Source: Shigella phage B2
Sequence record: OM858838
Reading direction: 5' to 3' (one strand)
DNA length: 64,000 nt
The notes beneath the pieces are model-generated. The model worked only from the letters and a program-made list of their open reading frames with translations. It had not been told where the DNA came from and ran no database searches. Position numbers and translations under genes: made by a program. Each line of letters begins with the position of its first letter. Within the stretch, counting starts at the first letter, position 1. This document shows positions 18,689 through 62,996 of the stretch, piece after piece.

Positions 18689-18695
18689 AAAATAA

Positions 18696-18717: not shown

Positions 18718-18731
18718 AATAGGTAAATGGT

Positions 18732-18965: not shown

Positions 18966-18967
18966 CC

Positions 18968-19351
18968 ATGTACAAACTTATCGCTCCCCTCCGAGTACAT
19001 AAATCCAAAGCCAAACTATTAAGTCTCAATCTTAATGCTTATAGAAATGAGCATCATATGAGTCTTAATAATGCTAAGGCTAACTTTAAAAAGATTATGG
19101 AAGAACAGATTAGAGCACTACCTAAGTTCTCTAAGGTGCATCTTACCTATGTCTTTTATCCCGGAACCAAACATCTAAGTGATGTTGGTAATGCTTGTAC
19201 CATAGTTGATAAGTTTTTTGCTGATGCTTTAGTCGAACTAGGGAAACTCCCAGATGACAATTATCTTTACATTCCTGAGTTGGTTTTTCGGATGGGGTCT
19301 ATAGACCGCGAAAACCCTCGTGTAGAAATCTTTATTAAGGAAATTGATTAG
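18968..19351 (+). CDS. hypothetical protein (weak resemblance to RusA-type resolvase)
   Basis: 127-aa ORF; D…D..K..DAL pattern only. Confidence 0.4.
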   Translation: MYKLIAPLRVHKSKAKLLSLNLNAYRNEHHMSLNNAKANFKKIMEEQIRALPKFSKVHLTYVFYPGTKHLSDVGNACTIVDKFFADALVELGKLPDDNYLYIPELVFRMGSIDRENPRVEIFIKEID

Positions 19352-19352
19352 T

Positions 19353-19799
19353 ATGCAAATCACTCTGAACCAAGACGAAATCATGGAAGCCCTGAAAGAT
19401 TATGCTTTCCGTGTAATCAATGTAGCTCCGGGCAATGATATCACTATCGACCTGAAAGCTGGTCGTGGTGAGAATGGCTATTCAGCCACTCTGGAAATCA
19501 CTCCACAGCGTTTAACGGAATCACATGACCCAAAGGGTCCTAATGTACGTGCAAGCTCCTCAGAAGGCTCTGTAGGCTTACGTACAGAAGTAATTGAACG
19601 TACAGTTGTTGAGCCAAGTAAGGGAATCCTGCGTGAGGTAGCTCCTGAACTTCCAGTTGAAGGTGAAACTGTAGTTGATACTGCTCCTACGGAGCCAGTG
19701 GACCCAGCAGCCCATCTGTCTGAAGAACAGGTTGATGCTGAAGTTGATGAATTCTTAGCTATCCAGAATCCTACCAAATCACTCTTCGCACGTAACTGA
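19353..19799 (+). CDS. hypothetical acidic protein sharing C-terminal PTKSLFA tail with 17691-18434 protein
   Basis: AAGGA SD, ATG at 19353; C-terminus …NPTKSLFARN. Confidence 0.55.
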   Translation: MQITLNQDEIMEALKDYAFRVINVAPGNDITIDLKAGRGENGYSATLEITPQRLTESHDPKGPNVRASSSEGSVGLRTEVIERTVVEPSKGILREVAPELPVEGETVVDTAPTEPVDPAAHLSEEQVDAEVDEFLAIQNPTKSLFARN

Positions 19800-19812
19800 T
19801 TAAGGAGCCAAG

Positions 19813-19959
19813 ATGAAAGCACTTAAAGCTGCTTTCATTACTGCTCTCATAGTAGGGGTCTTCTTTGCATGGCCCCTAGTATTAACAGTAGCTGTGATAG
19901 CAGGTATATTCTGGTTCATCTATATGGCTCTTAACCAAACAGAAGAGGAAGACGAGTAA
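19813..19959 (+). CDS. small membrane protein (48 aa, not in ORF track)
   Basis: AAGGAG SD; single hydrophobic helix; TAATG coupling to next gene. Confidence 0.4.
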   Translation: MKALKAAFITALIVGVFFAWPLVLTVAVIAGIFWFIYMALNQTEEEDE

Positions 19960-20186
19960 TGTATATCTGGCTTTTAATTGGCTTAGCTGTATCCATTTAT
20001 GTAGTACATGGACCTAAGCTAGATAATGAAGAAGCAAAGAGAATCAGAAAGAATGTTAAATTAGCGTTCGAACGTGTGGCTCTATTCAGAGCTATTATGA
20101 TTCCTGCATATATATTTTGGATGTGTGTGTTCTCTTTGATATGGCCTCTGATGATTTACATCAGATTCTTCTATAAAGATAAATAA
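19959..20186 (+). CDS. small membrane protein
   Basis: two hydrophobic segments in 75-aa ORF. Confidence 0.5.
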   Translation: MYIWLLIGLAVSIYVVHGPKLDNEEAKRIRKNVKLAFERVALFRAIMIPAYIFWMCVFSLIWPLMIYIRFFYKDK

Positions 20187-20190
20187 AATT

Positions 20191-20218
20191 AAGCCCCATC
20201 CTTGGGGCTTTTCTTTTA
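20191..20218. terminator. bidirectional intrinsic terminator between convergent + and - strand genes
   Basis: stem aagcccca/tggggctt flanked by A-run upstream and T-run downstream. Confidence 0.55.
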
Positions 20219-23200: not shown

Positions 23201-26200
23201 ACCAAATACAGCATCATATCTTTGTTTAGCTAATGCCATTTCACTAGCTGAACGATTATTAGGGTCAGTTAAGAAGTCTTCTACTTTCAAGGTATCTCTG
23301 GCTTGTGCATACAAACTACGTGCAACCAGAACACTTGGAGAAAAGTTCTCTAAACCATACTTCATAGAAACTTGCAGCATCTTGAATACAAATGCTTCTT
23401 TCTCACTCATGTTAAAACCATGAGCAATCAATGCATTTGGAGAGTTATCAATCTCTGGGTCGATACTATCTACCAGAAGTTTTTCCTGATAATGGTCTAA
23501 ACCAGAGATTTGCTGACCAGTATTCTTAATCACTTTAATGATATTTGACTGGAGATAATCCAGTGTATCAGTCAAATGATTCACATGGTCTTGCGTAGCT
23601 TTACCAGCATCCAGTTTATTAAACAGAGTTTCTGCATCTAATCTATTGATGTTATTAGCATTGGTTTGAGCATAGCTAGTTTCATCATTAGATTTAACCG
23701 GATTAGTAGAGTCAGTTAAAGCAACTGTATGCCCTAACAGACGTGACCAGTAAGAGGTAACATCTGGATTAGAGCCAATAGCAAACAGGCGCTTAATAGA
23801 ATCAGCTAACTGTTTGAGTACATTGGTAACAGTCCCAGCAATAGTCTTCTGAGTCATTGCATCAATCATTCTTGGGTTAACTAATCCCCATGCAATAAAC
23901 TCAGCAGTAGCTTGAGACATATTACCAGAAGCGATATGAGTATTAATCAGGTCTACTACAGCATCAGTTTCTGGATTGGTGCTTGAATATTCATTCACAA
24001 ACTTATTCATCAATCCTTCAATTGAAGCTACTTCTACTCTCTGAGCAGGAGTAATTGCTTCTGGATTGCTGTAATAGTTATGAACAGTATCAGCAGTAGC
24101 AGCATGAATTAACTCATGCATTACTGTCTCAATAGACTGAGAACCAATATAGATGTTCTGGCCTTGTGTAAGACCCAAGAACGTGTCATTAAACTCAACC
24201 TTAGTATCAGGTGTCATTTCCTGTTGAACGCCTGAGAGAGCTTCTGGTGAGCCTACATACACATTAATATCATTAGGGATAGAATTGATAATCTTATCCA
24301 GAATGAAACCAGTGATTCTATTCTGGCGAGAAGGCAGAGATTTAGCTGCCTCTCTTACAGCAGCAACCACATCACCTTTAGCCAGAACTTTAACACCTTC
24401 ATGACCTTTTACAGTTCTACCATTTCTATCCAGAGCCTCAGTCATCTGACGAGTAGGAGGAATGGTTACTCTACCTTTAGGTAGAGATACAGAATCCATA
24501 GTAGGTAATTCAGTATTGGCTACTAACTGTTCCAGAGGAGTTCTGGTATCAGTTGCTTCTCCATCAGTCTGTTTACCATTCTTAACATTGAATGGAATAT
24601 TGGCACCAGTCATCTGGTTAATGGAGGTAATAGCCTCACCACCTAACAGACCTTGTTTAATAGCAGTCTGAGTAGCAGCTTCTCTCTTAAGCAGAGTAGT
24701 GAATGCTTCAACCACTTCTGGACTAGTAGGTGCATTAGTTTCATCAGCACCAATCATTTCCATAATTCCACGGAAAGACTGTTCCAGACGAACATCTGCT
24801 TCTGGACCTAATTCCTCTGCCAGATTCACTCCATCCATTGCTTGCTCAAAACGGTTAGTGAAATCTTGCAGTAAATCGAATTCATTCCAGCTTTGCAGAA
24901 CACCTTGGTTAATAGCCTGAGAACCAGTATCCAAATGAGATACAGCATTGATGTAGCCATCGAATACGTTCAGAGCATTGTTAGGATTGATATCACGAGC
25001 AATAGCCTGCATAGCTGCTTCTACAGACTGAACCAGTAAAGGCATTACACGAGTACCCGGTTCAGTATAAGTAGGCATATCTACACCGAAGGTAGAACGA
25101 CGCATCTTACCATCCAGTTCTCTACGTCCTCTGGATTCCATTCTGTGTACGTCAGATGGAACACGCCCTTCCTCACTCAGAAGAATACCTTCATTCAGCT
25201 TTTCAACATCTAAGTTGTTAGCAGTAAACCAAGAATTGAAGATTGGCATTGAACCAATCAAGTAATTCTTAATGTCGTTGTACTGCTGCTGAGATAGAGA
25301 TTCATATTTAGATAACTTACCTTCTTTACGAAGTTCAGTTTCTAATCTCTCTACTTCTTTATTCCAACGAGACATGAATACTTCATGCATTACAGCAGCA
25401 GCATAGACCATCATCTTGCCACGATTAACTACAGTACCAAATTCATTAGCAATGGATTCGTTTACTGCTGCACCAATACCAATCTTGATGTTCTGAGTAA
25501 TAGCTTCGATTTGTTCACCGTCAAATTCAAACATAGTCACATCCTGACCTAAGTTGATAGGTGAACCAATCTGAACCCAAGAACCATTTCTGAATACCCG
25601 AGCAGTAGTCAGTTCATTAGTTGTATTAGTTAAGTCATTGATGTGTTCAATAGCAGCATCACGTTCTTCCTGATTAGTAGCTGCATCAACTGCTCTCAAT
25701 GCTTCTGTGATTGCTTCGTAATATCCATTAGCAATACCCATAGCAATCTTTCTATTGATTGCAGTAGCACCGCCTGAATAAACAGTTACTGTTACTGGAT
25801 TCTTAAGTAAACCTCGACCAATCTGAATTGGATGGTCTACATTTTCACCTTCAACAATATTCACATCACCAATCAGTTTGGATGCAGCAAGAGTAACCCT
25901 CATCTGATTCTTCAGACGTTCAATTTCACGCATTTCTTTTTGCTGGAATTGACGTGGTTTATTCTTCATTGCAGCAATTCGGTTAGGAATATTTCTAACT
26001 GAATCCATCATTCTATTGATGTATTGCTGACTATCAGCAGCAGCAGTCTTATACAGGTCTAAGAATCCCGGTTCTTCAGCAGCATCATTATACAGACGGT
26101 CAGACTGCCCATAGAAGAAACCGCCCTTCTCCAATTTATTCAGTAAGTCCTGGTTCACATCTTTCAAACCAAGCTGAACAATGGAGTTAAATGGTCCATT

Positions 26201-29200
26201 AGTAACACCATCAAGCTCCAGCATTACATGAGTCTGGAATGAGGTCTTACCTTGTTCTACAGCCAGTTCATATTGAGCCTGTGCATACAGAGCATGGAGA
26301 GTCTTAGTCTTCTCCTTACCTGCTTTAACAGCCTGCAACAAAGTCTCAGCATCACTATCACTGATGGCATCCTGATTCTCAGCAGCTTTAAGGATATCGA
26401 TAGCATCTCTGAACAGACCAGTACTGATAGCTTTATTCAGTCTATCTCTGGCTGTTTCAGAAGACAGCTTATCAACAGCAATATCTAAGCCCTGAGCAAT
26501 TGCATAATCAAGGAATGCACCATGCTGAGGGTTATTCAGTTCAATGGTAGATGGTTCAACAGTAACCAGTTCACGATGTAATTTAGCTGACTGAGGATTC
26601 AGGTCACCAGAGTTAAGCATCATACGGAAGTTACTGATTACGTTATAACCAAAGTAAACAGGAGTGGTAGCCAAAGGTAATCCAGCTTCAACCATTCTAG
26701 TTAAACCATTAACCAGAGTATTTATATCTCTTTCAATGGTACGGTTAGAACCCTGAATAGATTTCAGGTGAGCACCGTTAGTATTCTCTTCTGACTGAAT
26801 GCCTAACATTCTACCAATCCACTGAGTACCTAACTTATCAAGCATCAGGTCATGCAGACCCATGTTAATGAAGTGAGGTTGTTTGCTAGCTTTGTTACGA
26901 GCAGCAAGCATCTTCTCAGGGATATCCTGACCACCACCATTCTTAACTTTAGTGCTTTGACCTTTTGGTGGAGTACCAAAGTATGCACCTGCTCTTTCTC
27001 TCTGAGGATTAGTCAGTTGACCTAACAGGTCATTAGAATTCTGCATCAATTCTACTAAACGAGTAGCAGCAGGAGACTCTTCATTCATACGAATGAATAC
27101 ACGAGAGTTCTTCATGTTTGAGTCATTTACTTTAGTAGAACCAACAGCAGCTAATTCAGAGTTTTTAACAACTGATTCCTGAACCAGATTAGCATTAATC
27201 ATTACGTTCAATACTTCAGATGCCATTGCTTTAGACACAGCATCACGTACAGAGATAGGTGCATTAGGGTCTGCATTGATACCTAATACTCCAAAGATTT
27301 CTCTGCTTAAATCATCAATAACATTCTGACGGTCAGTACCAACGTTACGCAGTAAGTCAGTCTGTTCTACAGTTGGCCTAGTCTTGTTATCTAAACCAAG
27401 AATATCCATTACTGTACGGTCATCATTGAATGTAGTTTCAGATGCATTACGTACAAACCACTGCATCATTCCAGCAGTCATTGCTTCAATTACTGGCTGC
27501 GGTAAGAAGTAAACATTCTCACCATTGATGTTTCTAACTTCATCAAAGTACTCAACAGGATAAGTTTCCCAGAAGATACGCTGACCTTCAGGAGTTAATT
27601 TACCCCAAGACTGAATCAGAGATTGTTCAATAGCAGGGACTAAACCAGCAAACTGACGAAGTACATTTACTTCTTTCTCAGTTACTTGTTCTGGTTTGAT
27701 ATAACCTTTAAACAGATTCTGAATCTGAGTAATAGGATTAGAACCATTAGTAAAGATGCTATTAAGTCTCCCAGAGAAATTAGAAGTTCTCAGGAAAGCT
27801 GAACGTTTACCGGTAGGTTTAAACCATTTCTTAACTTGGTTTGTAGCTTGATATTCTTTATCTACATCAGAAGTAGACTTAGCATCAGAGCGTATTGTCT
27901 CTGCTTGCAGTCCATTCAGAATGTCATAGTTAACACCTTTCTCTGAACCAAGGTCTAATTGAGACTCATCCATCAGGTCAGTTTCTACATCAGTAGGTTT
28001 TTCCTGTAACTGGATATCAGATTCTACAGTATCTGGTTTCTCAAACAGTTCACCCTGTACAGGTTCAGTACGTACAGCTTCCTCAGACGCTACTGGCTGA
28101 GTTATTTCAGGCTGTACTGGTGTTTGTACCTCTTCCTGAGAAGTCTGCTCAGAAGTCTCTACAGGAGCTTCTACAGTAGTCTGCTGAGATACAGGTTGAG
28201 GGAAAGTATTCCTGACGTGGTTCAGGAAATCAGTACGTGCCTGAGAAGGTGTAGCCCATACTTCACGAGTACTACGTAAACTGAAGATATGCCCATCTGG
28301 TGTCATAACGTAAGGTACATTAGTGTCACCATAATTAAAGGAAGACAGAACATCCTGTTTACCAGTAACTGTGTCCTCTCCAGGAATAATAGTAGTTTTA
28401 CCACCATTAACCGGAACGGCACGAATACCCCCCATGTCTTTACCAATAGCAATATAGTCTTTGCCATTATAGGTAAAGTACTGACCTAACTGCATATACA
28501 GTGCCTGCTGCTGTCCAGTAAATTCAGCAGATTTCATCTCAGGACCGGCAGGGATACCACTAGAAGTAGTCTGCTGAGGAGCTGGTTTAGTTTCTTTTTT
28601 AACAGGTGCAGATTCCTGAGTCTGGTTGTTCACTTCTTCAGAAGCAACAGGAGCAGACTGTGCAGGGATATCTACAGGTTTACCATCTACCAGTTGACTG
28701 GTAAGGGTATGAGCCAGTCTTACTGCATCAGCATCATTACGAATCTCTTGGATTAATCCTTTAGAACGTACCGGATGGTACGTCATTGGATTTCCATCGA
28801 GAGACAGGTATGGCTGACCAGTAGTAGGATTAATTACTTCTACAGGTTGATTTCCAGTAAAGTTCTGAGCAGCTTGGTCAAAGGCAGCAGCCTTAGTTTC
28901 CATATGTTCAGCAAAGCGATTCAGGTGGTCTAACAGACCCTGAGCACGAGCAGTATCACCTAATGATAATGCACGGAAGATACCTTGCTGATATTGCTGG
29001 ATACCAATAAAGCCATCCGAACCTTCACGTACATCTTTACCTACTTGGCTCATAGCCTTACCAGTAGCAGAGATGACCTTAAGTTTATCCACATCCTGCT
29101 GACTTAAACCAAGAGTATCAGCAGAGTTAACTAAACGGTCAGCTACATCTGGAGTAATAGAAGATGCATCTAAGTTCATCTGAGCCAGAACAGATTTAAC

Positions 29201-31441
29201 ATTCTTCTGAACTTCAGGAGATTTGTAAGTCTCTGGAGTAATCTCAGAAGGTAATGATTCCATGACTTTAGTCATTTCATCAGGAGTCAGTTTAAATCCT
29301 TCAGCAGTAGTCTTAACTGCCTGTACATCAGGATGATTCAGTACAGCATTAATATTATCAATAGCAGTCTGATACTGAGCTTTCTGGTCTTCTGGAGCAG
29401 CATCCATCTGTGCCTGAATCTGAGGTAATGCTTCTTCATATGCAGAGATAACACTGTTACCAACAGTAGCTAAATCTCTACGAGAAGCTTCATCTAGATT
29501 ACGTTCTTTAATGGCACGAGAGATTCTCAGAATAGAATCAGGAGAACTGATTTCTTCTTCTGGAATAGCTTTGAATACTTCTTTGGCAGCAGGTTCAGTA
29601 ACAGCATCTACAGCTTTAGTAGTTACAGTTGGTTCTACTGGCGCTTCAGTATTAGTTTGTGGGGCAGCTTGTTTAACTGATTCATTGGCAGCAGATACAG
29701 TATTTCTAAAGTCTTGTGCTCTGCTTTCAGTTCTACGAGTCTGTCTTGCATCAAATGCTGTACGACCTTGTTGAACTCCTTCTTGGATTGCTCTAGGTGT
29801 CTCACTGATAGCTGAACCAACAGCACCCATACCCGCACCAGCAATAGCAGATTCAGCAACGTTTGAACCAATACCCTCAATGAGGGATTGAGATTCGTCA
29901 GCAGAGCTACGTACCCCGAGATTAGAAGCGAACTGACCAGAAGCGCCCTGTAATGCTTCCTCAACAGTCTCTTTAGCAGCATTCTGTGAAACCCTTGAAG
30001 ATGCAGCCAGTAATCCTTTACCTTCCAGTAAAGATGGAGTTAACAGACGTGATTCAAAGGGAGCAGCAACCTTACCAGTTAATGCACCTAAAGTACCTGC
30101 CACAGCAGAAGTAACATTACCTGCTTGAGTACGTACCTGACTTCTAGCCTGAGATGGTGTAGCACCTTCAGCAATAAGGTCACGATACATTGGTGATTTT
30201 TCAGCTAACTGAGCATCAGTTAATTTATCAATCTCATCCAGTGACTGTTGAGCATTTGAACCAGCTTCTTGGAAACCAACGTAACCAATAAATGCTCTTT
30301 CAGCAGCATCCTGTAGACGCTTTCTACCAAACTCAGTAGCAGCTAATTTAGTAGCAAAGTCCTCACCATACTCTTGAGCCAATTGCTTCAAAGCACCACG
30401 AGTAGCTAACTTACCTACGATACCACCAGTCAGTAAGTCTGGAGCAGATTCAGCAATCAGAGTAGTTAATGCACCTGGTGAAGTACCATACTGTTCAGCA
30501 GTATTAACGAACTGACGTAACTGTTCCTTAGCACCAGCTACTAATGGATTATCACCTTTAGCAATATCAGCAGCTTCTCTTGCTGCACCGCCTTGTTCAA
30601 AGCGTTGCTTATTGGCTTCGATAACAGATTGTTCATATTGAACAGCAGGAGAATACTGAGAACGCTGTTCATCAACGAATTCTTTTAATGGCTTATCAAT
30701 ACCTGCTTGGTCTAACAGAGTAGGTTGCCCTACTTGGTCTTCTTGACCAGTAACATTAGCAATTAAATCCTGAGCATTCTGTAATGCTAAGTTACCTAAA
30801 CTAGTAGCAAATCTTGCAGTATTACCTGCCCATACTTGGGCAGCATTACCAATGTCTGAAAGTTCCATAGGAGCATTTTCAAACTGGTCTGTATTAGCTT
30901 GAGCAATATTTAATGCAAGTTTGTCTCTAGCCGCTTGAGGACCATACTTCTGCTGTAAAGCAGAGATAGGCATATCTTTTAAATCAGCAAGATATTGGTC
31001 ATTTGGATTAGTCTGTGCAGCTTGATTAGGAGCTACATAGTTAGGATGACTTGGGTCAAAAGGACCAGTACCACCAAATTCAGGAGATACTTGAGGATTA
31101 ATCATCCTACGATAGAAAGGCTTAGTTGCTGCAATAGCATCATAGTTAGCCTGCATATCAGGAGTGGTTGGTTGAGTCTCAGGAATATTAAAATTATTAA
31201 TATTCTGACCAGTCAACATTGCCTGCATCTGTTCACGAGTATATTTAGGACCAGATTCAGCCAGACGAATAGCTTCCTGTCCTCTCTGATATTCAGGAGA
31301 ACCTACAGGGAAATCTGTTTCTACTCCGGGTACTGGAGCACCCATCTCTACTTGTTTCTGCTGAGTGGCTTGATTTAGTTGTTGTGTTTTTTGTAAATCA
31401 ACTCCAGCTAATTGTTGTTCTTTTTCAAATCCGGTAGCCAT
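20216..31441 (-). CDS. giant virion RNA polymerase (N4 vRNAP-like), 3741 aa
   Basis: T7-like RNAP motifs: A (MLELDG, D1744), B (R1876-x3-K1880-x7-Y1888-SG), C (VFDG, D2161); Y-to-D spacing of 273 residues equals that I recall for N4 mini-vRNAP; position downstream of structural genes. Confidence 0.85.
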   Translation of the reverse strand: MATGFEKEQQLAGVDLQKTQQLNQATQQKQVEMGAPVPGVETDFPVGSPEYQRGQEAIRLAESGPKYTREQMQAMLTGQNINNFNIPETQPTTPDMQANYDAIAATKPFYRRMINPQVSPEFGGTGPFDPSHPNYVAPNQAAQTNPNDQYLADLKDMPISALQQKYGPQAARDKLALNIAQANTDQFENAPMELSDIGNAAQVWAGNTARFATSLGNLALQNAQDLIANVTGQEDQVGQPTLLDQAGIDKPLKEFVDEQRSQYSPAVQYEQSVIEANKQRFEQGGAAREAADIAKGDNPLVAGAKEQLRQFVNTAEQYGTSPGALTTLIAESAPDLLTGGIVGKLATRGALKQLAQEYGEDFATKLAATEFGRKRLQDAAERAFIGYVGFQEAGSNAQQSLDEIDKLTDAQLAEKSPMYRDLIAEGATPSQARSQVRTQAGNVTSAVAGTLGALTGKVAAPFESRLLTPSLLEGKGLLAASSRVSQNAAKETVEEALQGASGQFASNLGVRSSADESQSLIEGIGSNVAESAIAGAGMGAVGSAISETPRAIQEGVQQGRTAFDARQTRRTESRAQDFRNTVSAANESVKQAAPQTNTEAPVEPTVTTKAVDAVTEPAAKEVFKAIPEEEISSPDSILRISRAIKERNLDEASRRDLATVGNSVISAYEEALPQIQAQMDAAPEDQKAQYQTAIDNINAVLNHPDVQAVKTTAEGFKLTPDEMTKVMESLPSEITPETYKSPEVQKNVKSVLAQMNLDASSITPDVADRLVNSADTLGLSQQDVDKLKVISATGKAMSQVGKDVREGSDGFIGIQQYQQGIFRALSLGDTARAQGLLDHLNRFAEHMETKAAAFDQAAQNFTGNQPVEVINPTTGQPYLSLDGNPMTYHPVRSKGLIQEIRNDADAVRLAHTLTSQLVDGKPVDIPAQSAPVASEEVNNQTQESAPVKKETKPAPQQTTSSGIPAGPEMKSAEFTGQQQALYMQLGQYFTYNGKDYIAIGKDMGGIRAVPVNGGKTTIIPGEDTVTGKQDVLSSFNYGDTNVPYVMTPDGHIFSLRSTREVWATPSQARTDFLNHVRNTFPQPVSQQTTVEAPVETSEQTSQEEVQTPVQPEITQPVASEEAVRTEPVQGELFEKPDTVESDIQLQEKPTDVETDLMDESQLDLGSEKGVNYDILNGLQAETIRSDAKSTSDVDKEYQATNQVKKWFKPTGKRSAFLRTSNFSGRLNSIFTNGSNPITQIQNLFKGYIKPEQVTEKEVNVLRQFAGLVPAIEQSLIQSWGKLTPEGQRIFWETYPVEYFDEVRNINGENVYFLPQPVIEAMTAGMMQWFVRNASETTFNDDRTVMDILGLDNKTRPTVEQTDLLRNVGTDRQNVIDDLSREIFGVLGINADPNAPISVRDAVSKAMASEVLNVMINANLVQESVVKNSELAAVGSTKVNDSNMKNSRVFIRMNEESPAATRLVELMQNSNDLLGQLTNPQRERAGAYFGTPPKGQSTKVKNGGGQDIPEKMLAARNKASKQPHFINMGLHDLMLDKLGTQWIGRMLGIQSEENTNGAHLKSIQGSNRTIERDINTLVNGLTRMVEAGLPLATTPVYFGYNVISNFRMMLNSGDLNPQSAKLHRELVTVEPSTIELNNPQHGAFLDYAIAQGLDIAVDKLSSETARDRLNKAISTGLFRDAIDILKAAENQDAISDSDAETLLQAVKAGKEKTKTLHALYAQAQYELAVEQGKTSFQTHVMLELDGVTNGPFNSIVQLGLKDVNQDLLNKLEKGGFFYGQSDRLYNDAAEEPGFLDLYKTAAADSQQYINRMMDSVRNIPNRIAAMKNKPRQFQQKEMREIERLKNQMRVTLAASKLIGDVNIVEGENVDHPIQIGRGLLKNPVTVTVYSGGATAINRKIAMGIANGYYEAITEALRAVDAATNQEERDAAIEHINDLTNTTNELTTARVFRNGSWVQIGSPINLGQDVTMFEFDGEQIEAITQNIKIGIGAAVNESIANEFGTVVNRGKMMVYAAAVMHEVFMSRWNKEVERLETELRKEGKLSKYESLSQQQYNDIKNYLIGSMPIFNSWFTANNLDVEKLNEGILLSEEGRVPSDVHRMESRGRRELDGKMRRSTFGVDMPTYTEPGTRVMPLLVQSVEAAMQAIARDINPNNALNVFDGYINAVSHLDTGSQAINQGVLQSWNEFDLLQDFTNRFEQAMDGVNLAEELGPEADVRLEQSFRGIMEMIGADETNAPTSPEVVEAFTTLLKREAATQTAIKQGLLGGEAITSINQMTGANIPFNVKNGKQTDGEATDTRTPLEQLVANTELPTMDSVSLPKGRVTIPPTRQMTEALDRNGRTVKGHEGVKVLAKGDVVAAVREAAKSLPSRQNRITGFILDKIINSIPNDINVYVGSPEALSGVQQEMTPDTKVEFNDTFLGLTQGQNIYIGSQSIETVMHELIHAATADTVHNYYSNPEAITPAQRVEVASIEGLMNKFVNEYSSTNPETDAVVDLINTHIASGNMSQATAEFIAWGLVNPRMIDAMTQKTIAGTVTNVLKQLADSIKRLFAIGSNPDVTSYWSRLLGHTVALTDSTNPVKSNDETSYAQTNANNINRLDAETLFNKLDAGKATQDHVNHLTDTLDYLQSNIIKVIKNTGQQISGLDHYQEKLLVDSIDPEIDNSPNALIAHGFNMSEKEAFVFKMLQVSMKYGLENFSPSVLVARSLYAQARDTLKVEDFLTDPNNRSASEMALAKQRYDAVFGNTAVTTDATGRTNRLANFIALAETNEQLRNKLSQISVKRTRQTPATTLRERIGDLTNAILTWLSGLATKSLGNTDVASRLTKLAKNISHVDSEARDNLFGRLVRGAEKITDTTQDKLKSFGHTIRRQLLKVEKKVPKSVAFGITAGSAVFNDQDAQDVRDAITNIYMTIHQNGKLGTVAELINEFIGSNETNSTIHTLLTQKNMAADRARQIIREMVPGMIESTFVSLNQTEKEAIQRVVANTDMAYLFANGYDLARLNELLTNPTELAKEIASIESQLQTAGAQNAPFYIKSAYGLAKQMVHGVSPLAYQLPNAAAIARLIGTGRVRPNDATVNTVTQLVDTMASLAALKELSQTDIATVSNLINREMTKGEPNNNGMTFTLKYYSSLQGAELAKSGQNQALAGIKGFTPTLSDPNKKVIIASIKDEPSLSRRGYTRGAQVARDPQDTNKEPMYYYHSNNGGEPRWIAGVMSTLQNTVGGVNPITGRTVNGAMTPGIWRATEKNNLSTRKRSSIDNLFDANAPMPTGNNSYMQPVLNRAGSIMGYSYQMPRANKEAHLDVDNDFTKVIGAWEGRIAEEIQAARYNEMLLQRLHEMYVKDAREGRAYQYITMDENSTDHQLKEIYELMPIEMKEQAKKIWPDGKIKVRKDLLNNAFGYREPSVLNMWTGQTGYSKEFQKAFTSIAETFLGKNAARYLRLGERGLMEFVKEMKDWIVVRSIVVSAANIVSNMVHLATVGVSPVTMAKDMSTAVLAAEEYRKNEKLINEYSHYLAVNHNPKMADEYQRKISELKDSQARNPVADLIKAGLLPTIAEDLGQQDNYSLKDKLLNKMDEYTSGIPDSVKRVAKEVTLSRDSNVYFLLNRSIQYGDFVAKYSLYKHLTTRKSNPMDKDSALNRVMDEFVNYDVLPSRTRFYLDAIGLTWFLNYKIRIQKIILRTIRENPLRALFLMFGNSVESGLPNITEANLVTGSLSYNVGMGTALNGLTVHPLVSLY

Positions 31442-45305: not shown

Positions 45306-47639
45306 TTAGATGGATGCTTCAGAGTTACCAAACATATCCCAAGCTTCTAACTCAATATTCCAGTATGAAGTTGGAGGAGTAGAAGGCCACGTTATATTAA
45401 TATCTAAAACAAGTCCGCCATTCCCTGCACCTACACCAATAGTGACATAAGAAGCCATATCAATATCTCGTATGGTTTCTAATGGCATATTAGGGCCATT
45501 AGCTCCAGCAACTTTAAGGTCTTTCATACTATAGTGGGCCGCAGTTGCTGTAATAGCTGTTGGTTGGTTACCTGTTGCATATGTAGTCTTAAGGATTTTA
45601 CCAGTGAATACATACCCACCACCAGTAGTCTTGATTAATAAGACCTCTAAATAATCCCCACTACTGTTACTAATTTTAAGTACGGAATGCCCACAGTTAT
45701 AGAAATTAGTACCTAAATCTCCAGAAATAGATGGAGTAGTAGGAAGCATACTTTGTGGCATTGGTACTTGAAAATTAACTAATGCAGTAGCCGTAGGCAA
45801 AGTTGCTTGGTTATATGCCTGCGGAATTTTTTTAGAATAAACAGCACGATGACCTTTATCAAATCTAGCCCAATTACGTGCTTGAACAGACATACCTACA
45901 GGCACAGGTTGTACAGTCAAAGAGTTAAGATAAAAATCTCCTCCAGTACCCTGTAAATTGGTAAAAAATGTAAGAGTTTTCCAACCACGACCCAGAATTC
46001 TACCAACAAATTTCCTATCTGCTGAGTATGTAGTACTCAGGTCAACAATGGCATTATTCGCTGCTTGAGGTGAGTTAGAAAAATTAATGGACTGGTTATT
46101 AGCGAAATCATAATAATCTTGTGCGCCATTATTCCACCAACTAGGAGCATCAACAAGAACGTTTATTGGACCAGCACCACTACCATGTACAAAAATATGT
46201 GCTGCTTCTGCATCTAAATAAAAACTGAATGTTGCAATAGATGCTACATTAGCAAGCATACCCCCCACAACTTTAGTACGGGTATACGCACCATCAGAAC
46301 GACCTAAGTTAATATTACCCGTAGCATCGCAATAGCCAATGCTATCATCTAAACGACCACACCAAGTATTAATCTCATTAGTGAGTGGACGGTAGGTTGG
46401 TAACAAACCACCAGCCATAAACATAGATGCTAGCATCTGACCATGAATCGCATAACCCATGGAGTTAAAGTGACCACCATCAGATTGCACTGCACCATTA
46501 TGACGATAGTACTGAACTTCATCAGCATTGAAATGAGCACAACCATATGTGTCAGCCATCATACGCATACGTTTTGCCCACAGGTTAGCAACAACACCGC
46601 CAGAACCCTGACCACCAGTAGAGCAAGTCTGGACAACTACACCCATACCCCAATCAATGAAGCGACGGATGAGTTTTTCCATATACTCCATGTAAATATC
46701 TTCAGTAGTTCCAGCAACACCACCAGCATCGTTCAAACCTAACATTAAAATAACAACATCACAGTTAGGATTGGATTGCCATGATGGTTCATTGTATGAC
46801 TGAATTGCTGTATGTCCTGAAATAGCACGATATACACCAGTAACACTACAACCTGACTGTTCTGGTAAGTAAGCCATAAAACGTTGAGGATAAGTCATAC
46901 TAGCATGAGTAGCCCAATCCCCGTTGTTAGCAGGAACACGGTCAGTAGAAGTAGTATCGTAACCAGCAGTCATTGAGTCACCCTGGAACAATACTTTGAT
47001 TGAACCACGACTATGAACTTGCTTATCTACCCAAGCTAATTTCTGGATATTACGTGCACGGTAATTTGCTGAATCATTAGCAATAATCCACTGTTGTACA
47101 GTTTTACCATCAGACGTACCAATCTGGGATGCACCACCAGTAGTAGCTAATTCATCTCGTAACTCTTCACCAGTAACTTCAATCCATGCTGATGCACTAA
47201 TACCTCCACTTGAAGCAGGAGTTGAACCAGCAGGAACTACTTTAGGTACTGCCCCCGCCCAACGATATTGAGCGCCATTAGAATGGGTAAGAATTTCATT
47301 CTTAACCTGAATGGTTGCACCAGAAGTAAAGTCACCAGGAATAGTCACATACTCTTTACGCAAAACAGCTACTGCTCCAAGGTCTACAGAACCTTGTGAA
47401 TGTACAAGTACAGCAGCAGTACTAAGACTGATGGCAGTAGTACCAGCAGGAATACCAATAGGTAAGGAGTAAGCTCTTTGCGTGGTCTTGTCATAAATTA
47501 CTTTATATCCAGAGATATCAACACCAACAGAGAAATAAACAACCTCAGACTGTTTAACTCCGAAGTGTCTAGCTACTGCTTGTTTATTGGTTAGGATTCC
47601 AGCAGAACCTTTACCACCTTGACTAAATAACTGATTCAT
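45306..47639 (-). CDS. tail fibre/spike-like protein with SGNH (GDSL) hydrolase domain
   Basis: SGNH block ILMLGLNDAGG and upstream GDSMTAGY; 777 aa late gene. Confidence 0.6.
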   Translation of the reverse strand: MNQLFSQGGKGSAGILTNKQAVARHFGVKQSEVVYFSVGVDISGYKVIYDKTTQRAYSLPIGIPAGTTAISLSTAAVLVHSQGSVDLGAVAVLRKEYVTIPGDFTSGATIQVKNEILTHSNGAQYRWAGAVPKVVPAGSTPASSGGISASAWIEVTGEELRDELATTGGASQIGTSDGKTVQQWIIANDSANYRARNIQKLAWVDKQVHSRGSIKVLFQGDSMTAGYDTTSTDRVPANNGDWATHASMTYPQRFMAYLPEQSGCSVTGVYRAISGHTAIQSYNEPSWQSNPNCDVVILMLGLNDAGGVAGTTEDIYMEYMEKLIRRFIDWGMGVVVQTCSTGGQGSGGVVANLWAKRMRMMADTYGCAHFNADEVQYYRHNGAVQSDGGHFNSMGYAIHGQMLASMFMAGGLLPTYRPLTNEINTWCGRLDDSIGYCDATGNINLGRSDGAYTRTKVVGGMLANVASIATFSFYLDAEAAHIFVHGSGAGPINVLVDAPSWWNNGAQDYYDFANNQSINFSNSPQAANNAIVDLSTTYSADRKFVGRILGRGWKTLTFFTNLQGTGGDFYLNSLTVQPVPVGMSVQARNWARFDKGHRAVYSKKIPQAYNQATLPTATALVNFQVPMPQSMLPTTPSISGDLGTNFYNCGHSVLKISNSSGDYLEVLLIKTTGGGYVFTGKILKTTYATGNQPTAITATAAHYSMKDLKVAGANGPNMPLETIRDIDMASYVTIGVGAGNGGLVLDINITWPSTPPTSYWNIELEAWDMFGNSEASI

Positions 47640-54364: not shown

Positions 54365-54992
54365 TAAACTCAGATTGTCGTTTTACTACGACGATTGGGA
54401 TAGCAAGCTGGCTCTGCTTAAACCAGCGCATAGTAATGAGAGCATTTGCAGGGGCGATGGATTGATGTTATTTAACCATGCGTGTAAGTGTTCTCTTTAC
54501 TATGCTGCCATAGTAACCCGAAGATTGCTTTCCTTAGAGGAAGCAGAGTTTAAACAGGTATATCCTGTCCTGTATTGAAGGTGTAACAACTGAATATACC
54601 AGAGTACTAGAACTCTGTTACCGAACTCAGGGAGTTGCTGGCCTAACCAGCTTAACATCCTATCAATGAGTACACTTGATTGAGGTCAGAAGATGAAATG
54701 AAGCTTCTGTAAAATGAATCCACAGAGTGTACTCTTTGATAGTTTTCGTATGCGATTATGCGGTTTTTTAAAAACGAACCATAAAACATAAATGCAAACG
54801 ATGATGTTGTTCTGATGGCGGCTTAACAGCCTATAAATCAGTGAGGTATTCCAGTTCCTCATAACAGAATCTGGCGCACTGGCCCGGTGTGATTAATAAT
54901 GGGCAACCAATATCTCTTTAAGTGTATTGAATCAGTATATTTACAGAGATACGCGCCAAGTATATCTCACTTCCGAATACGTTGATTATTTT

Positions 54993-55019
54993 GCCCATCT
55001 CCCTTGATGGGCTTTTTTT
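54993..55019 (+). terminator. intrinsic terminator at start of early region
   Basis: stem gcccatc/gatgggc with T7 run. Confidence 0.55.
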
Positions 55020-55113
55020 ATCCCAATCCCCGCCTTACGCTTATGCGCTTCCATCGCTCACTACGTTCGCTCGGAGCGCTTCGCTTCAGGCTAGTCGTAG
55101 GAGACTCTTAAGA

Positions 55114-56376
55114 ATGTCTACCCCTTGTGAAAGATTAGGTTATAAAGAAGGAATGCAGTTCACTCTCGTCAACGATGATGTTGATGGATTGAGTGCTGGT
55201 GATACCCTCTGGCTTCATAGTGATGATGGTTCACATAATCCTGAATTCCGTGATACTGAAAAAGTAAACGATGATACTGAAACCTACTACATCGATTTAA
55301 ACTGTGTAGCTCGTTGTACCGAAGATGAAACACTCGCCTATAACCGTGGCTTAAGAGAAGGAGATATCCTTCAGATGGTTATGGATGATGATGGTGAGGA
55401 AGCCTATGAAGGCGATATCATCACATTCATCAAAGATGATGGAGATACCTGTCCTCAATTTGAAGTACAGAAGGATGGTAATAAGGCTTACCTGTACCTC
55501 TCTCATGTAGGTGGATTAGAACCTAAAGTAGGTCGTAAGGTTCGTGTAATCCATAACTGTACTGGTGGGTTCTCTTCAGGTACTGAAGGAACTATTGTTG
55601 ATATCTGTTCTGATGGGGACTATTTGATTGCAGCACGTGGAGATACCATGTATCACCATGCTGACTCCTGTATTGTCTTCGGCTATGCAGATGACGAATC
55701 CTCTGACAGTAAAGACCCTGAACCAGTAAAAGAAGATTACCCAACTAAACCTGCTTCTGAATGGAAACAAGGTGATAGAGGTATTGTTCGTGGTCAGCAA
55801 GATAATGACCCACATAACTTCCAGATTGGTGAAGAGATTACCTTTGAACGGGGAAGAGACTCAGAAAGAGGTATCTTCCGAGGTACTAAGTACACTTCTA
55901 CTCAAAACATTCAATATGATTTGATTGAAGTAGTCTCTATTGAACCGTACCCAATCACTGTTACTAAAGTATCCAAAGAGAATCCTGTAGCCTGTATCAA
56001 AGCTATACGTGCTGCTACTGGGTTAGGTTTGTATGAAGCTAAACAAGCTTATGACTTTGTTAGAGATAACGAAGAACCATACAGCTTACAGATAATCATC
56101 TCTAAAGGTGAGTTAACTCATCTCTTTACTGAAGCAGGTATCGAATACTTCTTTGATAGACAAACTGAAGTATCTGGAACCAAACCAACAGTAATCATCT
56201 GTGATGAGTTAGCTGATACTTCTAAGAAGTATAAATACTTCATTGATGGTGATTCCATTGAAGTAACATTAGTTGGATACTTCGAAGGTGAACCCATCTG
56301 TGCTTACAAAGACAGATGGGGTGATATTCAAACCTTCGTAGCTAAACAATCACTTCTGGTATCTGATGATGACTAA
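55114..56376 (+). CDS. early protein with acidic DDG-repeat N-terminal region and ribosomal protein L7/L12 C-terminal-domain-like segment
   Basis: VACIKAIRAATGLGLYEAKQAYDFV closely parallels the L7/L12 CTD core [29 protein letters not shown] SD before ATG 55114 (track ORF start 54982 rejected). Confidence 0.6.
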   Translation: MSTPCERLGYKEGMQFTLVNDDVDGLSAGDTLWLHSDDGSHNPEFRDTEKVNDDTETYYIDLNCVARCTEDETLAYNRGLREGDILQMVMDDDGEEAYEGDIITFIKDDGDTCPQFEVQKDGNKAYLYLSHVGGLEPKVGRKVRVIHNCTGGFSSGTEGTIVDICSDGDYLIAARGDTMYHHADSCIVFGYADDESSDSKDPEPVKEDYPTKPASEWKQGDRGIVRGQQDNDPHNFQIGEEITFERGRDSERGIFRGTKYTSTQNIQYDLIEVVSIEPYPITVTKVSKENPVACIKAIRAATGLGLYEAKQAYDFVRDNEEPYSLQIIISKGELTHLFTEAGIEYFFDRQTEVSGTKPTVIICDELADTSKKYKYFIDGDSIEVTLVGYFEGEPICAYKDRWGDIQTFVAKQSLLVSDDD

Positions 56377-56547: not shown

Positions 56548-56790
56548 ATGGTAAAAGACCCACTTGCTCTCTCATTAGAAAAACGTAAGCTATGGAGAAG
56601 GGCTGCTACTCGATGGTTAGAACTATTAACATCCAGAGACTTAACAGCTACTGAGATGGATTGGGTCTTAGCCAGAAGAGACTATTGCACTAGAAAGACT
56701 AAGAGAGCAGAACCTCTTATAGATTCTGGAGTAATACACGGAGCACCTAACTCATTTATCTATGATTACTTTGGCTTTCTCCGTAAATGA
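56548..56790 (+). CDS. hypothetical early protein
   Basis: 80-aa ORF. Confidence 0.45.
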   Translation: MVKDPLALSLEKRKLWRRAATRWLELLTSRDLTATEMDWVLARRDYCTRKTKRAEPLIDSGVIHGAPNSFIYDYFGFLRK

Positions 56791-60433: not shown

Positions 60434-60637
60434 ATGAATGGAGATTTGATAGATATATTAGAACTAATAGTTGTTCTCAAATTAGGTAATAGAAATAAAG
60501 TATGTAACCACATAATGATACATAGAATGTGTAATGATATTCCATGTAGTGAATGCCTACTTAATACAAGTAAAGTATATATTTCTGACTATCCAATTCA
60601 AATCATTGAAATGAAAGGTAAGCTAAATGAACAATGA
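60434..60637 (+). CDS. Cys-motif mini-protein family member 1
   Basis: N-terminal MNGDLIDILELI, C-terminal C…C…C..C cluster. Confidence 0.5.
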   Translation: MNGDLIDILELIVVLKLGNRNKVCNHIMIHRMCNDIPCSECLLNTSKVYISDYPIQIIEMKGKLNEQ

Positions 60638-60839
60638 TTTATTCTTAATTCTTAGTTCTATTAAAGCTGCATTAGGTGAAGGTAGAGGTAAAAATACTTC
60701 TGCTGATTTTCTATGTAATGGTATTCATGATACTGACCCTGAACAATGTCATTATGTTAATTGTATTGATTGTATAGTTGGATATAAAGATTCAACTAAA
60801 TATGCACATCAGATAATCCAGACATGGAAAATATTATGA
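60627..60839 (+). CDS. Cys-motif mini-protein family member 2
   Basis: MNNDLFLILSSIK…C…C..C.DC; overlaps neighbours. Confidence 0.5.
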   Translation: MNNDLFLILSSIKAALGEGRGKNTSADFLCNGIHDTDPEQCHYVNCIDCIVGYKDSTKYAHQIIQTWKIL

Positions 60840-61045
60840 ATAAAGAACTTAAGTTAATTTTATTTACTTTAAAAATGAAAATTAAATTTGGTAATGGAAC
60901 TGCCGAAAACTTATGTAGAAGTATGGTAATAGATATTGATGGAGAATTAATTCCTCAATGTACTCAAATTTCTTGTTTTAATTGTCTATTTTATCAAGAT
61001 TCTACTTATGCAGAAAAGGTAATACATGTCTGGCATCAACTCTGA
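60836..61045 (+). CDS. Cys-motif mini-protein family member 3
   Basis: MNKELKLILFTLK…C…C..C.NC; ATGA coupling at 60836. Confidence 0.5.
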   Translation: MNKELKLILFTLKMKIKFGNGTAENLCRSMVIDIDGELIPQCTQISCFNCLFYQDSTYAEKVIHVWHQL

Positions 61046-61271
61046 ATTATTATTCATACTTCAAAGTATTAAAAACTCTATGGCAAAAGAAGAAGTACAA
61101 AATAAGAGAGGTATTCAATGGGGAGAATCAGATAAATTGTGTACAGAACATTTATATAATGTATGTGGGGATAAAACATCTAAAAATATATGTGATGATT
61201 GCTTAATTGGATACAAAGATAATGTTGGATATGCATCCAATATGATTATTGTAATTCAAAAGTTAATCTAA
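61026..61271 (+). CDS. Cys-motif mini-protein family member 4
   Basis: …SELLFILQSIK…C…C.DC. Confidence 0.5.
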   Translation: MSGINSELLFILQSIKNSMAKEEVQNKRGIQWGESDKLCTEHLYNVCGDKTSKNICDDCLIGYKDNVGYASNMIIVIQKLI

Positions 61272-61344: not shown

Positions 61345-61584
61345 ATGTCAAAGAAAACTAAGTCAGCTAAACCAGTAGAAGTTAAGTTAGGTAATGTTCC
61401 TGATTATACAGTGACTTATAGTCGTCAAGAACAGTTATGGGGAGTCCATATTAATGGTATCTCTGCATACATTCTCAAACGACCTATTGGTAAAAAGAAT
61501 ATGTATTACGTAGGTACTCGTTATTTCAAAACACTACGTGATGCAATCTTCAGTGTTGTATTGGGGAATTCACTTCCCTTCTAG
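61345..61584 (+). CDS. small basic hypothetical protein (not of the Cys family)
   Basis: 79-aa ORF with own SD. Confidence 0.45.
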   Translation: MSKKTKSAKPVEVKLGNVPDYTVTYSRQEQLWGVHINGISAYILKRPIGKKNMYYVGTRYFKTLRDAIFSVVLGNSLPF

Positions 61585-61592: not shown

Positions 61593-61766
61593 ATGAACCA
61601 AGAGTTAATACTTATTCTCTCAGCCATTAGAGAAAATAAAGGAATATGTACTAAATATTCTGTTAAATGTCATGGAATAGATTGTGGAAACTGTATTCTA
61701 GCAGAAGTATATATACAAAACTTCTACAAAGATTATATAGTTAAAATGGGTGAGAGAATATTATGA
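61593..61766 (+). CDS. Cys-motif mini-protein family member 5 (57 aa, not in ORF track)
   Basis: AGGAG SD; MNQELILILSAIR…C…C..C.NC. Confidence 0.45.
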   Translation: MNQELILILSAIRENKGICTKYSVKCHGIDCGNCILAEVYIQNFYKDYIVKMGERIL

Positions 61767-61993
61767 ATAGAGAATTACTAACAATAATAGAATCTCTATG
61801 TAAAAAGGTAGTATTTAAAAGCCATTCAGGGCTAGAGTTCATAGAAACTAAGCCTGAAATGTGTCGTATTATTTCATTAAGAGTTCCTCGTAGATGCGAA
61901 GGAACTAGTTGCTGTAATTGTTATTTCTCAAGGAGTAAACAATTACATGAAGTTTATACTTTATATTTAAAAAGACTTATTCAACGTATTTAG
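61763..61993 (+). CDS. Cys-motif mini-protein family member 6
   Basis: MNRELLTIIESLC…C..CCNC. Confidence 0.5.
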   Translation: MNRELLTIIESLCKKVVFKSHSGLEFIETKPEMCRIISLRVPRRCEGTSCCNCYFSRSKQLHEVYTLYLKRLIQRI

Positions 61994-62015: not shown

Positions 62016-62028
62016 CAGCCTTCGGCTG
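62016..62028 (+). promoter_or_regulatory. TTC-triloop hairpin (cagcc-TTC-ggctg), candidate hairpin promoter
   Basis: 5-bp stem, 3-nt loop, followed by TTCTGGTGAA; upstream of macro-like gene. Confidence 0.4.
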
Positions 62029-62058
62029 TTCTGGTGAATTATAAACTTAGAGGTAAAT

Positions 62059-62562
62059 ATGTTAGAAGCTCGCGGTAATATGCTTGAAATGGAATGTGAT
62101 GCGTTGTGCATTACTACCAATGGATTTGTTAAAAGCAATGGTGCATCAGTTATGGGTGCTGGTATTGCAAAGCAGATGCGAGTAACTATTCCTGGACTGG
62201 ATAAAATTCTAGGTCAGAAGATTGCTCGTGAAGGTAACAATGTTCATTTCTTATTAAATTATAACAATATTGGAATTGTATCCTTCCCTGTTAAACCAAT
62301 AACAGAAATTAGTAATGGTGAGAACTTTGTTAAACATAAGTTCTTCCCTGTAGGTACAACAGTTCCGGGATGGGCATGTAAAGCAAACATCGATTTGATT
62401 GTACGTTCATGCCAGCAACTGGTAGCACTGGCTGACCAATATGGTTGGCAGAAAGTCTTATTACCAAGACCGGGATGTGGTGCTGGTGAGCTTAACTGGA
62501 GCCATGTGAAGAAGGTTATTGAACCTTTGTTAGATGACAGGTTTATCGTCTGCACCTATTGA
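62059..62562 (+). CDS. macro-domain-like protein (possible ADP-ribose binding/hydrolase)
   Basis: N-terminal …DALCITTNGFVKSNGASVMGAGIA… resembles macro-domain Gly-rich ADP-ribose pocket; GAGG SD. Confidence 0.5.
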   Translation: MLEARGNMLEMECDALCITTNGFVKSNGASVMGAGIAKQMRVTIPGLDKILGQKIAREGNNVHFLLNYNNIGIVSFPVKPITEISNGENFVKHKFFPVGTTVPGWACKANIDLIVRSCQQLVALADQYGWQKVLLPRPGCGAGELNWSHVKKVIEPLLDDRFIVCTY

Positions 62563-62569: not shown

Positions 62570-62773
62570 ATGGGTAACCAATTAATAGTAATATTTAAAG
62601 AATTACTTCACTCAGGAGTGAATCCTACTTTATGTCATAACTATATTGGCACTGAATGTGTAGACATACCATCATGCGCAAATTGCCCTTTATCTAGTAC
62701 TTCATTCGCAAAACATCCTGAAAGAAATTTCCCTAATCAGTTATTTACTGTATTGGAGAAGTTGAATGGATAA
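62570..62773 (+). CDS. Cys-motif mini-protein family member 7
   Basis: GAGGTGAG SD; MGNQLIVIFKELL…C…C…C.NC. Confidence 0.5.
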   Translation: MGNQLIVIFKELLHSGVNPTLCHNYIGTECVDIPSCANCPLSSTSFAKHPERNFPNQLFTVLEKLNG

Positions 62774-62996
62774 ATTAATTACCATTTTAAATGGAATATA
62801 TAATTTACCTGAACGCAAAGACTACGCTCCAAAAGAGTACATATGTGATTTAATCATATGTCCTGATGTACTTTGCAGTAATTGTCCAATGGGCAACCCA
62901 CATTATTTAAATCCTGACAAAGAATTATTTGTCACTCAAATCCATAAAACATTGGAAGTCATGAACCATGAAACAAGAAACTCAACTCCTGATTGA
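62766..62996 (+). CDS. Cys-motif mini-protein family member 8
   Basis: MDKLITILNGIY…C…C.NC. Confidence 0.5.
   Translation: MDKLITILNGIYNLPERKDYAPKEYICDLIICPDVLCSNCPMGNPHYLNPDKELFVTQIHKTLEVMNHETRNSTPD

Follow-up and report, generated by a model that had tools for sequence, protein, structure and literature searches.

What does a single small gene in the early region of an N4-like phage do for its carrier? The question arises from Shigella phage B2 (sequence record OM858838), of which a stretch of 64,000 nucleotides, here called the window, was analysed. On its plus strand, positions 62059..62562 hold an open reading frame (ORF) that had been taken, from the letters alone, for a macro-domain-like early protein and a candidate anti-defence factor reversing ADP-ribosylation (the original prediction). 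DNA ADP-ribosylation by DarT toxins is an established anti-phage defence, and phages have recently been recognised to counter it with 'orphan antitoxins' (AdfN in 2025, AdfM in 2026). AdfM (anti-DarT factor macro; PhiKZ gp104 and its chimallivirus homologues) strips DarT2-made ADP-ribose (ADPr) from DNA and protects the phage (Cell Rep 2026, PMC13309987). AdfN is a phage NADAR orphan antitoxin that erases DarT-made DNA ADP-ribosylation and acts against DarTG1 (PMC11825919). The window protein is a macrodomain of the class to which DarG and human TARG1 belong, and with a probability of roughly 85% it is an active ADP-ribose-removing enzyme used early against a host ADP-ribose-based defence. The anti-defence interpretation is thus supported as the leading hypothesis.

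The gene and its putative ribosome-binding site are as follows.

62059..62562, plus strand: macrodomain protein gene, ATG start, 167 residues, stop codon included; consists of one macro domain, of the ALC1-like (DarG/TARG1) class
62049..62053, plus strand: Shine-Dalgarno-like AGAGG, with the ATG 5 nt further on; kept in Salmonella phage FSL SP-058 and Klebsiella phage Pylas

The reading frame is the one originally described, and the peptide quoted at that time, MECDALCITTNGFVKSNGASVMGAGIAKQM, corresponds to residues 11–40. This is a real, conserved gene, whose product has 1142 database homologues. Orthologues are 97–99% identical at the protein level in Salmonella Ithacavirus phages and 76–89% identical in Pollock, Pylas, KpCHEMY26 and TR2, which represent four related genera, and homologues with 45–52% identity are found in Vibrio and Aeromonas phages. 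Relative to the Pylas gene there are 51 synonymous and 35 non-synonymous codon differences, and the gene is under purifying selection. The region around it shares 92–95% identity with the Salmonella phages vB_SenP_UTK0001, As2 and FSL SP-058 (Schitoviridae, Humphriesvirinae, Ithacavirus) and 78–86% with Klebsiella phage Pylas and with Escherichia phage Pollock. The phage is an Ithacavirus-like N4-type podovirus of 72 kb, and the window corresponds to such a genome in permuted form, its early region lying at ~56–64 kb. In SP-058, the gene lies in the early region, 5.8 kb from the left genome end and just upstream of two RNAPII subunit genes, a placement that is identical in Pylas and in a 52%-identical metagenomic N4-like phage.

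Macro homologues occur in 64 of 50,697 phage records, a patchy distribution typical of accessory counter-defence genes. A non-exhaustive pattern scan of 185,579 species genomes for possible cellular homes of the subfamily gave only 23 loci, mostly on contigs of metagenome-assembled genomes (several of them ~60–70 kb long) and none in an enterobacterial genome. The homologues already carry the labels 'ADP ribose binding protein' (GenBank), 'Macro domain-containing protein', 'Appr-1-p processing' and 'phosphatase'.

The original prediction hinged on a macro fold being recognizable, and a hidden Markov model search was proposed as its check. The plain Pfam Macro model (PF01661) falls short here, matching residues 98–153 only, with 18.6 bits against a gathering threshold of 22 bits (E 0.0019), and by itself this check would have been equivocal. 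The assignment to the macro domains is based instead on profile comparisons and on structure: the AlphaFold2 model, the Foldseek search and the profile matches all point to a macro fold. Precomputed PF01661 matches do exist for some homologues at 50–70% identity. PHROG 335, a phage macro family named 'phosphatase', is matched at 3e-27, and in NCBIfam and the PADLOC defence library DarG is the sole match (1.2e-10 and 1.9e-10). In the Protein Data Bank (PDB), a profile of 61 homologues finds the DarG macrodomains of Mycobacterium tuberculosis (1e-8) and Thermus aquaticus (8e-8); it also matches human TARG1 (2e-6) and the DarTG fusion of Thermosipho. The AlphaFold2 model built on the alignment of these homologues (predicted local distance difference test, pLDDT, 95.6; predicted template modelling score, pTM, 0.90) has the three-layer α/β/α macro fold, and Foldseek ranks T. 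aquaticus DarG (5m3e, E 6e-9), M. tuberculosis DarG and TARG1 at the top. Its nearest structural neighbours are members of the ALC1-like class. Because DarG and TARG1 lead the profile, library and structure matches, the protein is assigned to the ALC1-like (TARG1/DarG/SCO6735) macrodomain class.

The active site is made up of the following elements, with residue conservation counted over the 61 homologues.

62119..62121, plus strand: Asn21, invariant (61/61), aligned to the Asn of ITVN in PhiKZ gp104 (AdfM Asn23)
62122..62148, plus strand: subfamily insertion 1, GFVKSNGAS (G22–S30), between Asn21 and the first Gly-rich loop
62149..62169, plus strand: Gly-rich phosphate-binding loop 1, VMGAGIA (residues 31–37), with V31, M32, G33, G35 and A37 invariant
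62293..62295, plus strand: Lys79 in FPVK, the candidate catalytic lysine, invariant (61/61)
62296..62370, plus strand: subfamily insertion 2, ~25 residues, PITEISNGENFVKHKFFPVGTTVPG, straight after Lys79
62464..62493, plus strand: phosphate-binding loop 2, PRPGCGAGEL, with P136, R137, G139, G141, G143, E144 and L145 invariant

The N-terminal Gly-rich stretch that had suggested a macro-type loop is indeed one: in alignments, VMGAGIA corresponds to VMGKGVA in DarG and to RMGAGIA in TARG1. Loop 2 aligns with PRIGCGLDRL of TARG1 and PPLG(A/V)GNGGL of DarG, and both loops (VMGAGIA, 31–37, and PGCGAGEL, 138–145) are invariant or nearly so. Lys79 aligns with the Lys of FPTK in M. tuberculosis DarG (Lys80), of FPTK in AdfM and of ITK in TARG1 (Lys84); the DarG and TARG1 lysines are catalytic (PMC9411070). 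At the position of Asn21, the N23A mutation of AdfM lowers activity (PMC13309987). The invariance of the catalytic residues argues for an enzyme rather than a mere binder. The Lys/Asp dyad of TARG1 is without its Asp here, as Gly143 occupies the position of Asp125, a feature shared with DarG, and the dyad is dispensable for DarG-type activity (PMC9411070).

Two insertions set the subfamily apart. The first makes its segment ~6 residues longer than in DarG, AdfM and TARG1, is also present in the homologue from the T4-like Proteus phage PM2, and is strongly conserved (G22 in 61/61, K25 in 56/61 and G28 in 60/61 sequences). The second is found in the N4-like and Vibrio phage members only and is absent from DarG, AdfM, TARG1 and the PM2 homologue; it retains V91 (61/61), H93 (59/61), G99 (59/61) and G104 (61/61), and is modelled by AlphaFold2 with short strands at residues 82–84 and 101–103. 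Given this strong conservation, the two insertions probably shape the substrate site. The invariant Glu144 in loop 2 is specific to the subfamily.

Among known systems, the macrodomain of DarG (T. aquaticus, PDB 5M31 and 5M3E; M. tuberculosis, 5M3I; Thermosipho DarTG, 7OMU) is the best structural and profile match. The two share the catalytic Lys and the Gly in place of TARG1 Asp125. Unlike DarG, the window protein consists of the macro domain only, with no C-terminal DarT-binding domain and no adjacent darT (DUF4433), and it adds the two conserved insertions and the invariant Glu144. The NCBIfam DarG model (NF048014, an equivalog) gives 41.2 bits against a cut-off of 250 bits, within positions ~1–140 of 338, and its match is split into two pieces because of the insertions. 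The name DarG was rejected for these reasons (no DarT-binding domain, no darT neighbour, 41 vs 250 bits). A tblastn search with Pseudomonas aeruginosa DarT2 as query gave no match to the window or to any of 30 fetched loci, and no DarT2 homologue lies beside the 23 genomic relatives. The same query matches DarT at 28–43% identity on 80 plasmids, including those of Escherichia, Klebsiella and Citrobacter.

AdfM resembles the window protein in being a phage-encoded, stand-alone macrodomain of ~160 residues that has no toxin partner, and in having the same Asn (N23 in AdfM, N21 here), the FP(T/V)K lysine and the Gly-rich loops. An hhalign comparison with AdfM gives a probability of 96.6% (E 5e-10), and a direct tblastn match is obtained with the macrodomain of the 265-kb Pseudomonas jumbo phage pPa_SNUABM_DT01, which, like AdfM, is without both insertions. 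The identity to AdfM is, however, only 25–28%, and AdfM lacks both insertions. It acts within the phage nucleus of jumbo phages, whereas the window gene is predicted to be an early gene of a 72-kb podovirus, driven by the virion RNA polymerase (vRNAP). A close orthologue of AdfM is also unsupported by the calibration of the DarG model, which places the window protein farther off than human TARG1. The isoelectric point proved uninformative as a hint of DNA binding (8.55 for the window protein, 5.05 for AdfM and 4.9–9.6 across the family).

TARG1/OARD1 differs from the window protein in its Asp125 partner and the ALC1-like SCO6735/BT1257 group in that SCO6735 has Gln in place of the Lys; both are cellular genome-maintenance enzymes, unlike a viral early protein. 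AdfN offers the parallel of a phage carrying an orphan enzyme that resembles a host antitoxin and erases DNA ADP-ribosylation, but it has an unrelated fold (NADAR), acts on the guanine-ADPr of DarT1 only and cannot counter DarTG2. The window protein is thus best seen as a distinct orphan branch of the DarG/TARG1 class, neither DarG nor a close AdfM orthologue. As a probable phage macrodomain ADP-ribose eraser, it is a divergent member of that class and no new kind of system. Macrodomains are common in phages (PMC9503650), the eraser concept has been published and the gene is already annotated as macro; what is distinctive here is the conserved active-site insertions and a recurrent link to DUF4326 and SLOG domains. 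A literature search found no published test of a macrodomain from an N4-like phage.

When would such a protein be made? The triloop hairpin that the original prediction had placed ahead of the gene is present, as CAGCC-TTC-GGCTG at 62016–62028, and it folds as a DNA hairpin on the minus strand.

62016..62028, minus strand: hairpin CAGCC-TTC-GGCTG, candidate N4-type vRNAP early promoter; perfect 5-bp stem, 3-nt loop, template loop GAA
62033, plus strand: predicted transcription start (G), 11 nt past the loop centre at 62022, leaving a 26-nt leader; in the N4 rule the loop centre is −11

Block 62002–62029, with the hairpin inside it, is identical in Pylas, and the TGG at 62032–62034 is kept, while both flanks diverge. 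The early region contains five TTC-loop hairpins on the plus strand (stems of 5–7 bp; loop centres at 57395, 58225, 59492, 59544 and 62022), all of which have TGG at +10 to +12 from the loop centre. On the template strand, the five share −12A, −11A, −10G, −9C and +1C (G in the RNA). The vRNAP of N4 requires a hairpin with a 3-nt loop, −11A/G, −10G and +1C (PMC4496689). Because of this match to the N4 rule and the preservation of the block between diverged flanks, the hairpin is best read as a putative early promoter with a start near 62033, which would make the macrodomain gene the first in a unit transcribed by the injected polymerase.

The five candidate early promoters here compare with three reported in N4. 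A second, GC-rich class of TTC-loop hairpins is found outside the early region, with loop centres at 3838, 6119 and 52111 on the plus strand and also at 2440 and 51332. Three hairpins of this class are followed by a shared GCTnnCTTTGG / AGTTGCTTTGG motif, and the class may represent terminators or another regulatory signal.

Taken together, these features would allow the following course of events. Encoded by the first gene behind a hairpin promoter for the injected vRNAP, the protein would be present within the first minutes of infection. Its two Gly-rich loops would hold the ADP-ribose moiety, and the invariant Lys79, acting with Asn21, would break the C1'' bond of the distal ribose and free ADP-ribose, to judge from DarG and TARG1. 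The likeliest target would be thymidine-linked ADP-ribose that a DarT2 toxin of the host has attached to single-stranded phage DNA, and such an 'orphan antitoxin' would let replication proceed, as AdfM does for PhiKZ. Reversal of thymidine-ADPr is common to DarG, TARG1 and SCO6735 and has been called a unifying function of the class (PMC9411070). No ADP-ribosyltransferase turned up in Pfam scans of 20 other window ORFs and 10 early ORFs, nor in the annotation of Pylas (vRNAP and a number of known genes lay outside the scan, and divergent ADP-ribosyltransferases could escape it); this agrees with a target modified by the host and not by the phage. The chance that the specific substrate is DarT2-modified DNA is put at slightly less than even.

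Several points weigh against this reading, and in particular against its choice of substrate. The ALC1-like class has further substrates, namely Glu/Asp-linked ADPr on proteins, O-acetyl-ADPr and phosphate-linked ADPr on nucleic acids (PMC9411070). Next to the catalytic Lys and Asn stand the two strongly conserved insertions, which could alter substrate specificity, and neither Glu144 nor His93 has a counterpart in DarG. In sequence the protein is remote from DarG: the DarG model scores AdfM at 138 bits, even human TARG1 at 57 and the window protein at 41. Fusions of the subfamily to DUF4326 and SLOG domains recur, and members are also encoded near SLOG or Sequestin genes. As to the promoter, template position −8 is C and so does not match the −8G of N4; this position varies across the five hairpins, and the vRNAP of this phage subfamily may differ from that of N4. 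Finally, the activity, the substrate and the anti-defence role are predictions for the whole subfamily.

The most serious alternative, though a less likely one, accepts the enzyme and changes its substrate: the macrodomain would act on soluble ADP-ribose derivatives produced by host immunity, cleaving the C1''-linked group, possibly in series with an early DUF4326 protein, and thereby silencing a signal or detoxifying a metabolite. Candidate substrates are the glycocyclic ADPR (gcADPR) or His-ADPR signals of Thoeris, the ADPr-1''-phosphate made by RES-type toxins and similar compounds. The company that the subfamily keeps speaks for this alternative. An exhaustive profile search gave 6603 relatives, 657 of them at E ≤ 1e-30; among the top 150 representatives, 21 are at least 289 residues long, and 20 of these were scanned with Pfam. 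DUF4326 and YAcAr SLOG each score above threshold in 3 of the 20, a weak DprA/SLOG match is seen in 4, and 10 show nothing. A separate DUF4326 protein is encoded in the same early region of the window, and further genes of this kind lie close to macro homologues of 50–52% identity on metagenomic phage contigs.

58234..58572, plus strand: DUF4326 protein (Pfam DUF4326, 4e-26), early, separate, a possible functional partner; likely start ATG 58261
Contig L037, 1509–1919, minus strand: Sequestin-family or YAcAr SLOG gene, as are the next two, all 2.3–3.1 kb from the macro homologue
Contig L034, 7791–8252, plus strand: Sequestin-family or YAcAr SLOG gene
Contig L036, 7555–7956, plus strand: Sequestin-family or YAcAr SLOG gene

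The DUF4326 gene of the window has a promoter-like hairpin of its own (58219–58231, predicted start 58236), and close orthologues of the macro and DUF4326 genes (at least 76% identity) are found in exactly the same 18 phage records, a co-occurrence within one phage subfamily that shared ancestry alone could explain. On the contigs, which are of marine phages in the SLOG cases, two SLOG genes lie 2.3–2.5 kb downstream, in the same string of small genes as the macro homologue; the Sequestin-family gene lies 3 kb off in another contig and on the opposite strand. Iyer, Aravind and colleagues have proposed that Macro/NADAR/SLOG/DUF4326 combinations in phages target diffusible ADPr derivatives (PMC9503650). 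Thoeris restricts N4-like phages, and these encode genes against immune signalling (bioRxiv 10.64898/2026.06.04.730250). The literature search, however, found no phage macrodomain shown to degrade Thoeris signals, and the fusions are also compatible with a DNA substrate because DprA-like domains bind single-stranded DNA. DUF4326 as a miniature NADAR domain was considered and is unsupported, as profile–profile comparisons, whether to YbiA by itself or to 23 aligned NADAR sequences, yielded a probability of 0.2%.

In a more specific version of this alternative, slightly more doubtful still, the insertion-bearing macrodomain and the DUF4326 protein, its fusion partner in other viruses, would form a two-enzyme early module that destroys a soluble immune signal or toxin (gcADPR, His-ADPR or ADPr-1''-phosphate) and erases nothing from DNA. 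If true, phages would here, for the first time as far as the literature search shows, use a macrodomain as an enzyme against signalling or NAD-derived immunity, and the module would give DUF4326 its first function.

Reversal of protein or RNA ADP-ribosylation made by a host ADP-ribosyltransferase defence or toxin, such as a TARG1-like removal from Glu/Asp, is improbable. The close structural neighbours TARG1 and SCO6735 do hydrolyse Glu/Asp-linked protein ADPr, TARG1 also acts on phosphate-linked nucleic-acid ADPr (PMC9411070), and an RNA-ADP-ribosylating defence system has been named as an open target for phage erasers (PMC11825919). Against this, the structural ranking favours DarG, which does not act on proteins and which, like the window protein with its Gly143, has an incomplete TARG1 Lys/Asp dyad; nor is any specific host system implicated. 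Still less probable is that the protein binds ADP-ribose without catalysis, as a sponge or reader, or that it regulates an ADP-ribosyltransferase of the phage itself. Binding-only macrodomains exist (PMC9503650) and the GenBank label 'ADP ribose binding protein' would suit one, but the catalytic Lys and Asn are invariant across the 61 homologues, and the non-exhaustive search of 30 window ORFs and the Pylas annotation revealed no ADP-ribosyltransferase to regulate. An ADP-ribose-1''-phosphate phosphatase that disposes of an RNA-repair by-product, and would serve metabolism and not counter-defence, is hardly to be expected, since the names 'phosphatase' and 'Appr-1-p processing' were inherited from the generic macro label and not from tests, Poa1p, the type enzyme, ranks below DarG, an SCO6735-like protein and TARG1, and no RNA-repair context was seen (no RNA ligase or Tpt1/KptA-type gene in the annotated early and replication regions of Pylas or among the scanned window ORFs).

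Should the preferred reading of an AdfM-like action prove true, the strategy would extend from jumbo and T4-like phages to the N4-like podoviruses of Salmonella, E. coli and Klebsiella. For such phages, which are therapy candidates, this one gene would then allow the host range against DarTG2-carrying strains to be predicted. The subfamily also lends itself well to testing what sets substrate specificity in macrodomains, as it keeps the DarG/TARG1 catalytic lysine, has two conserved insertions beside it and shows repeated fusions to DUF4326 or SLOG domains.

The surroundings of the gene are likewise as first described: it is flanked by an array of paralogous Cys mini-protein genes, eight ORFs of 57–81 residues with four invariant Cys. 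This array and other annotated genes of the window are listed below.

60434..61271, 61593..61993 and 62570..62996, plus strand: eight Cys4 mini-proteins with a helix-like N-terminal M-N-x-E-L-x-x-I-L and the pattern C-x8-15-C-x4-8-C-x2-C
61345..61584, plus strand: homologue of bacteriophage N4 gp8, an inhibitor of host DNA replication (Pfam N4_GP8, 1e-26), inside the Cys mini-protein array
56548..56790, plus strand: protein resembling PerC-family transcriptional activators (Pfam PerC, 1e-11), at the beginning of the early region
12369..13133, plus strand: ThyX-type thymidylate synthase (6e-36)
13144..13773, plus strand: Nmad5 'nucleotide modification associated domain 5' protein (5e-56), directly after ThyX
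14759..16933: primase
20216..31441: vRNAP
45306..47639, minus strand: tail spike that has a receptor-binding domain of the Gp66 type at its N-terminus and also a GDSL lipase/esterase domain
54982..56376, plus strand: ORF of 464 residues with a TTG start, adjoining the early region

Two of the Cys mini-proteins were scanned with Pfam and gave no match; the group is probably a zinc-binding family expanded in the early region. The ThyX and Nmad5 genes hint that the phage may modify a DNA pyrimidine, and such a modification, if present, could matter for a thymidine-directed defence such as DarT2.

The interval of ~16900..20200 between the primase and vRNAP genes is the counterpart of the N4-like 'anti-signalling hotspot', a locus other than that of the macrodomain gene, where N4-like phages carry Tad2, Tad3, Acb4, Sequestin and RyR-Tad (bioRxiv 10.64898/2026.06.04.730250). 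The single ORF scanned in this interval (19344..19799) has no Pfam match. In the ORF of 464 residues, the C-terminal domain of ribosomal protein L7/L12 is matched below threshold at residues 327–357 (24.4 vs 25.9 bits). The tail spike is probably a receptor-destroying enzyme that deacetylates the O-antigen.

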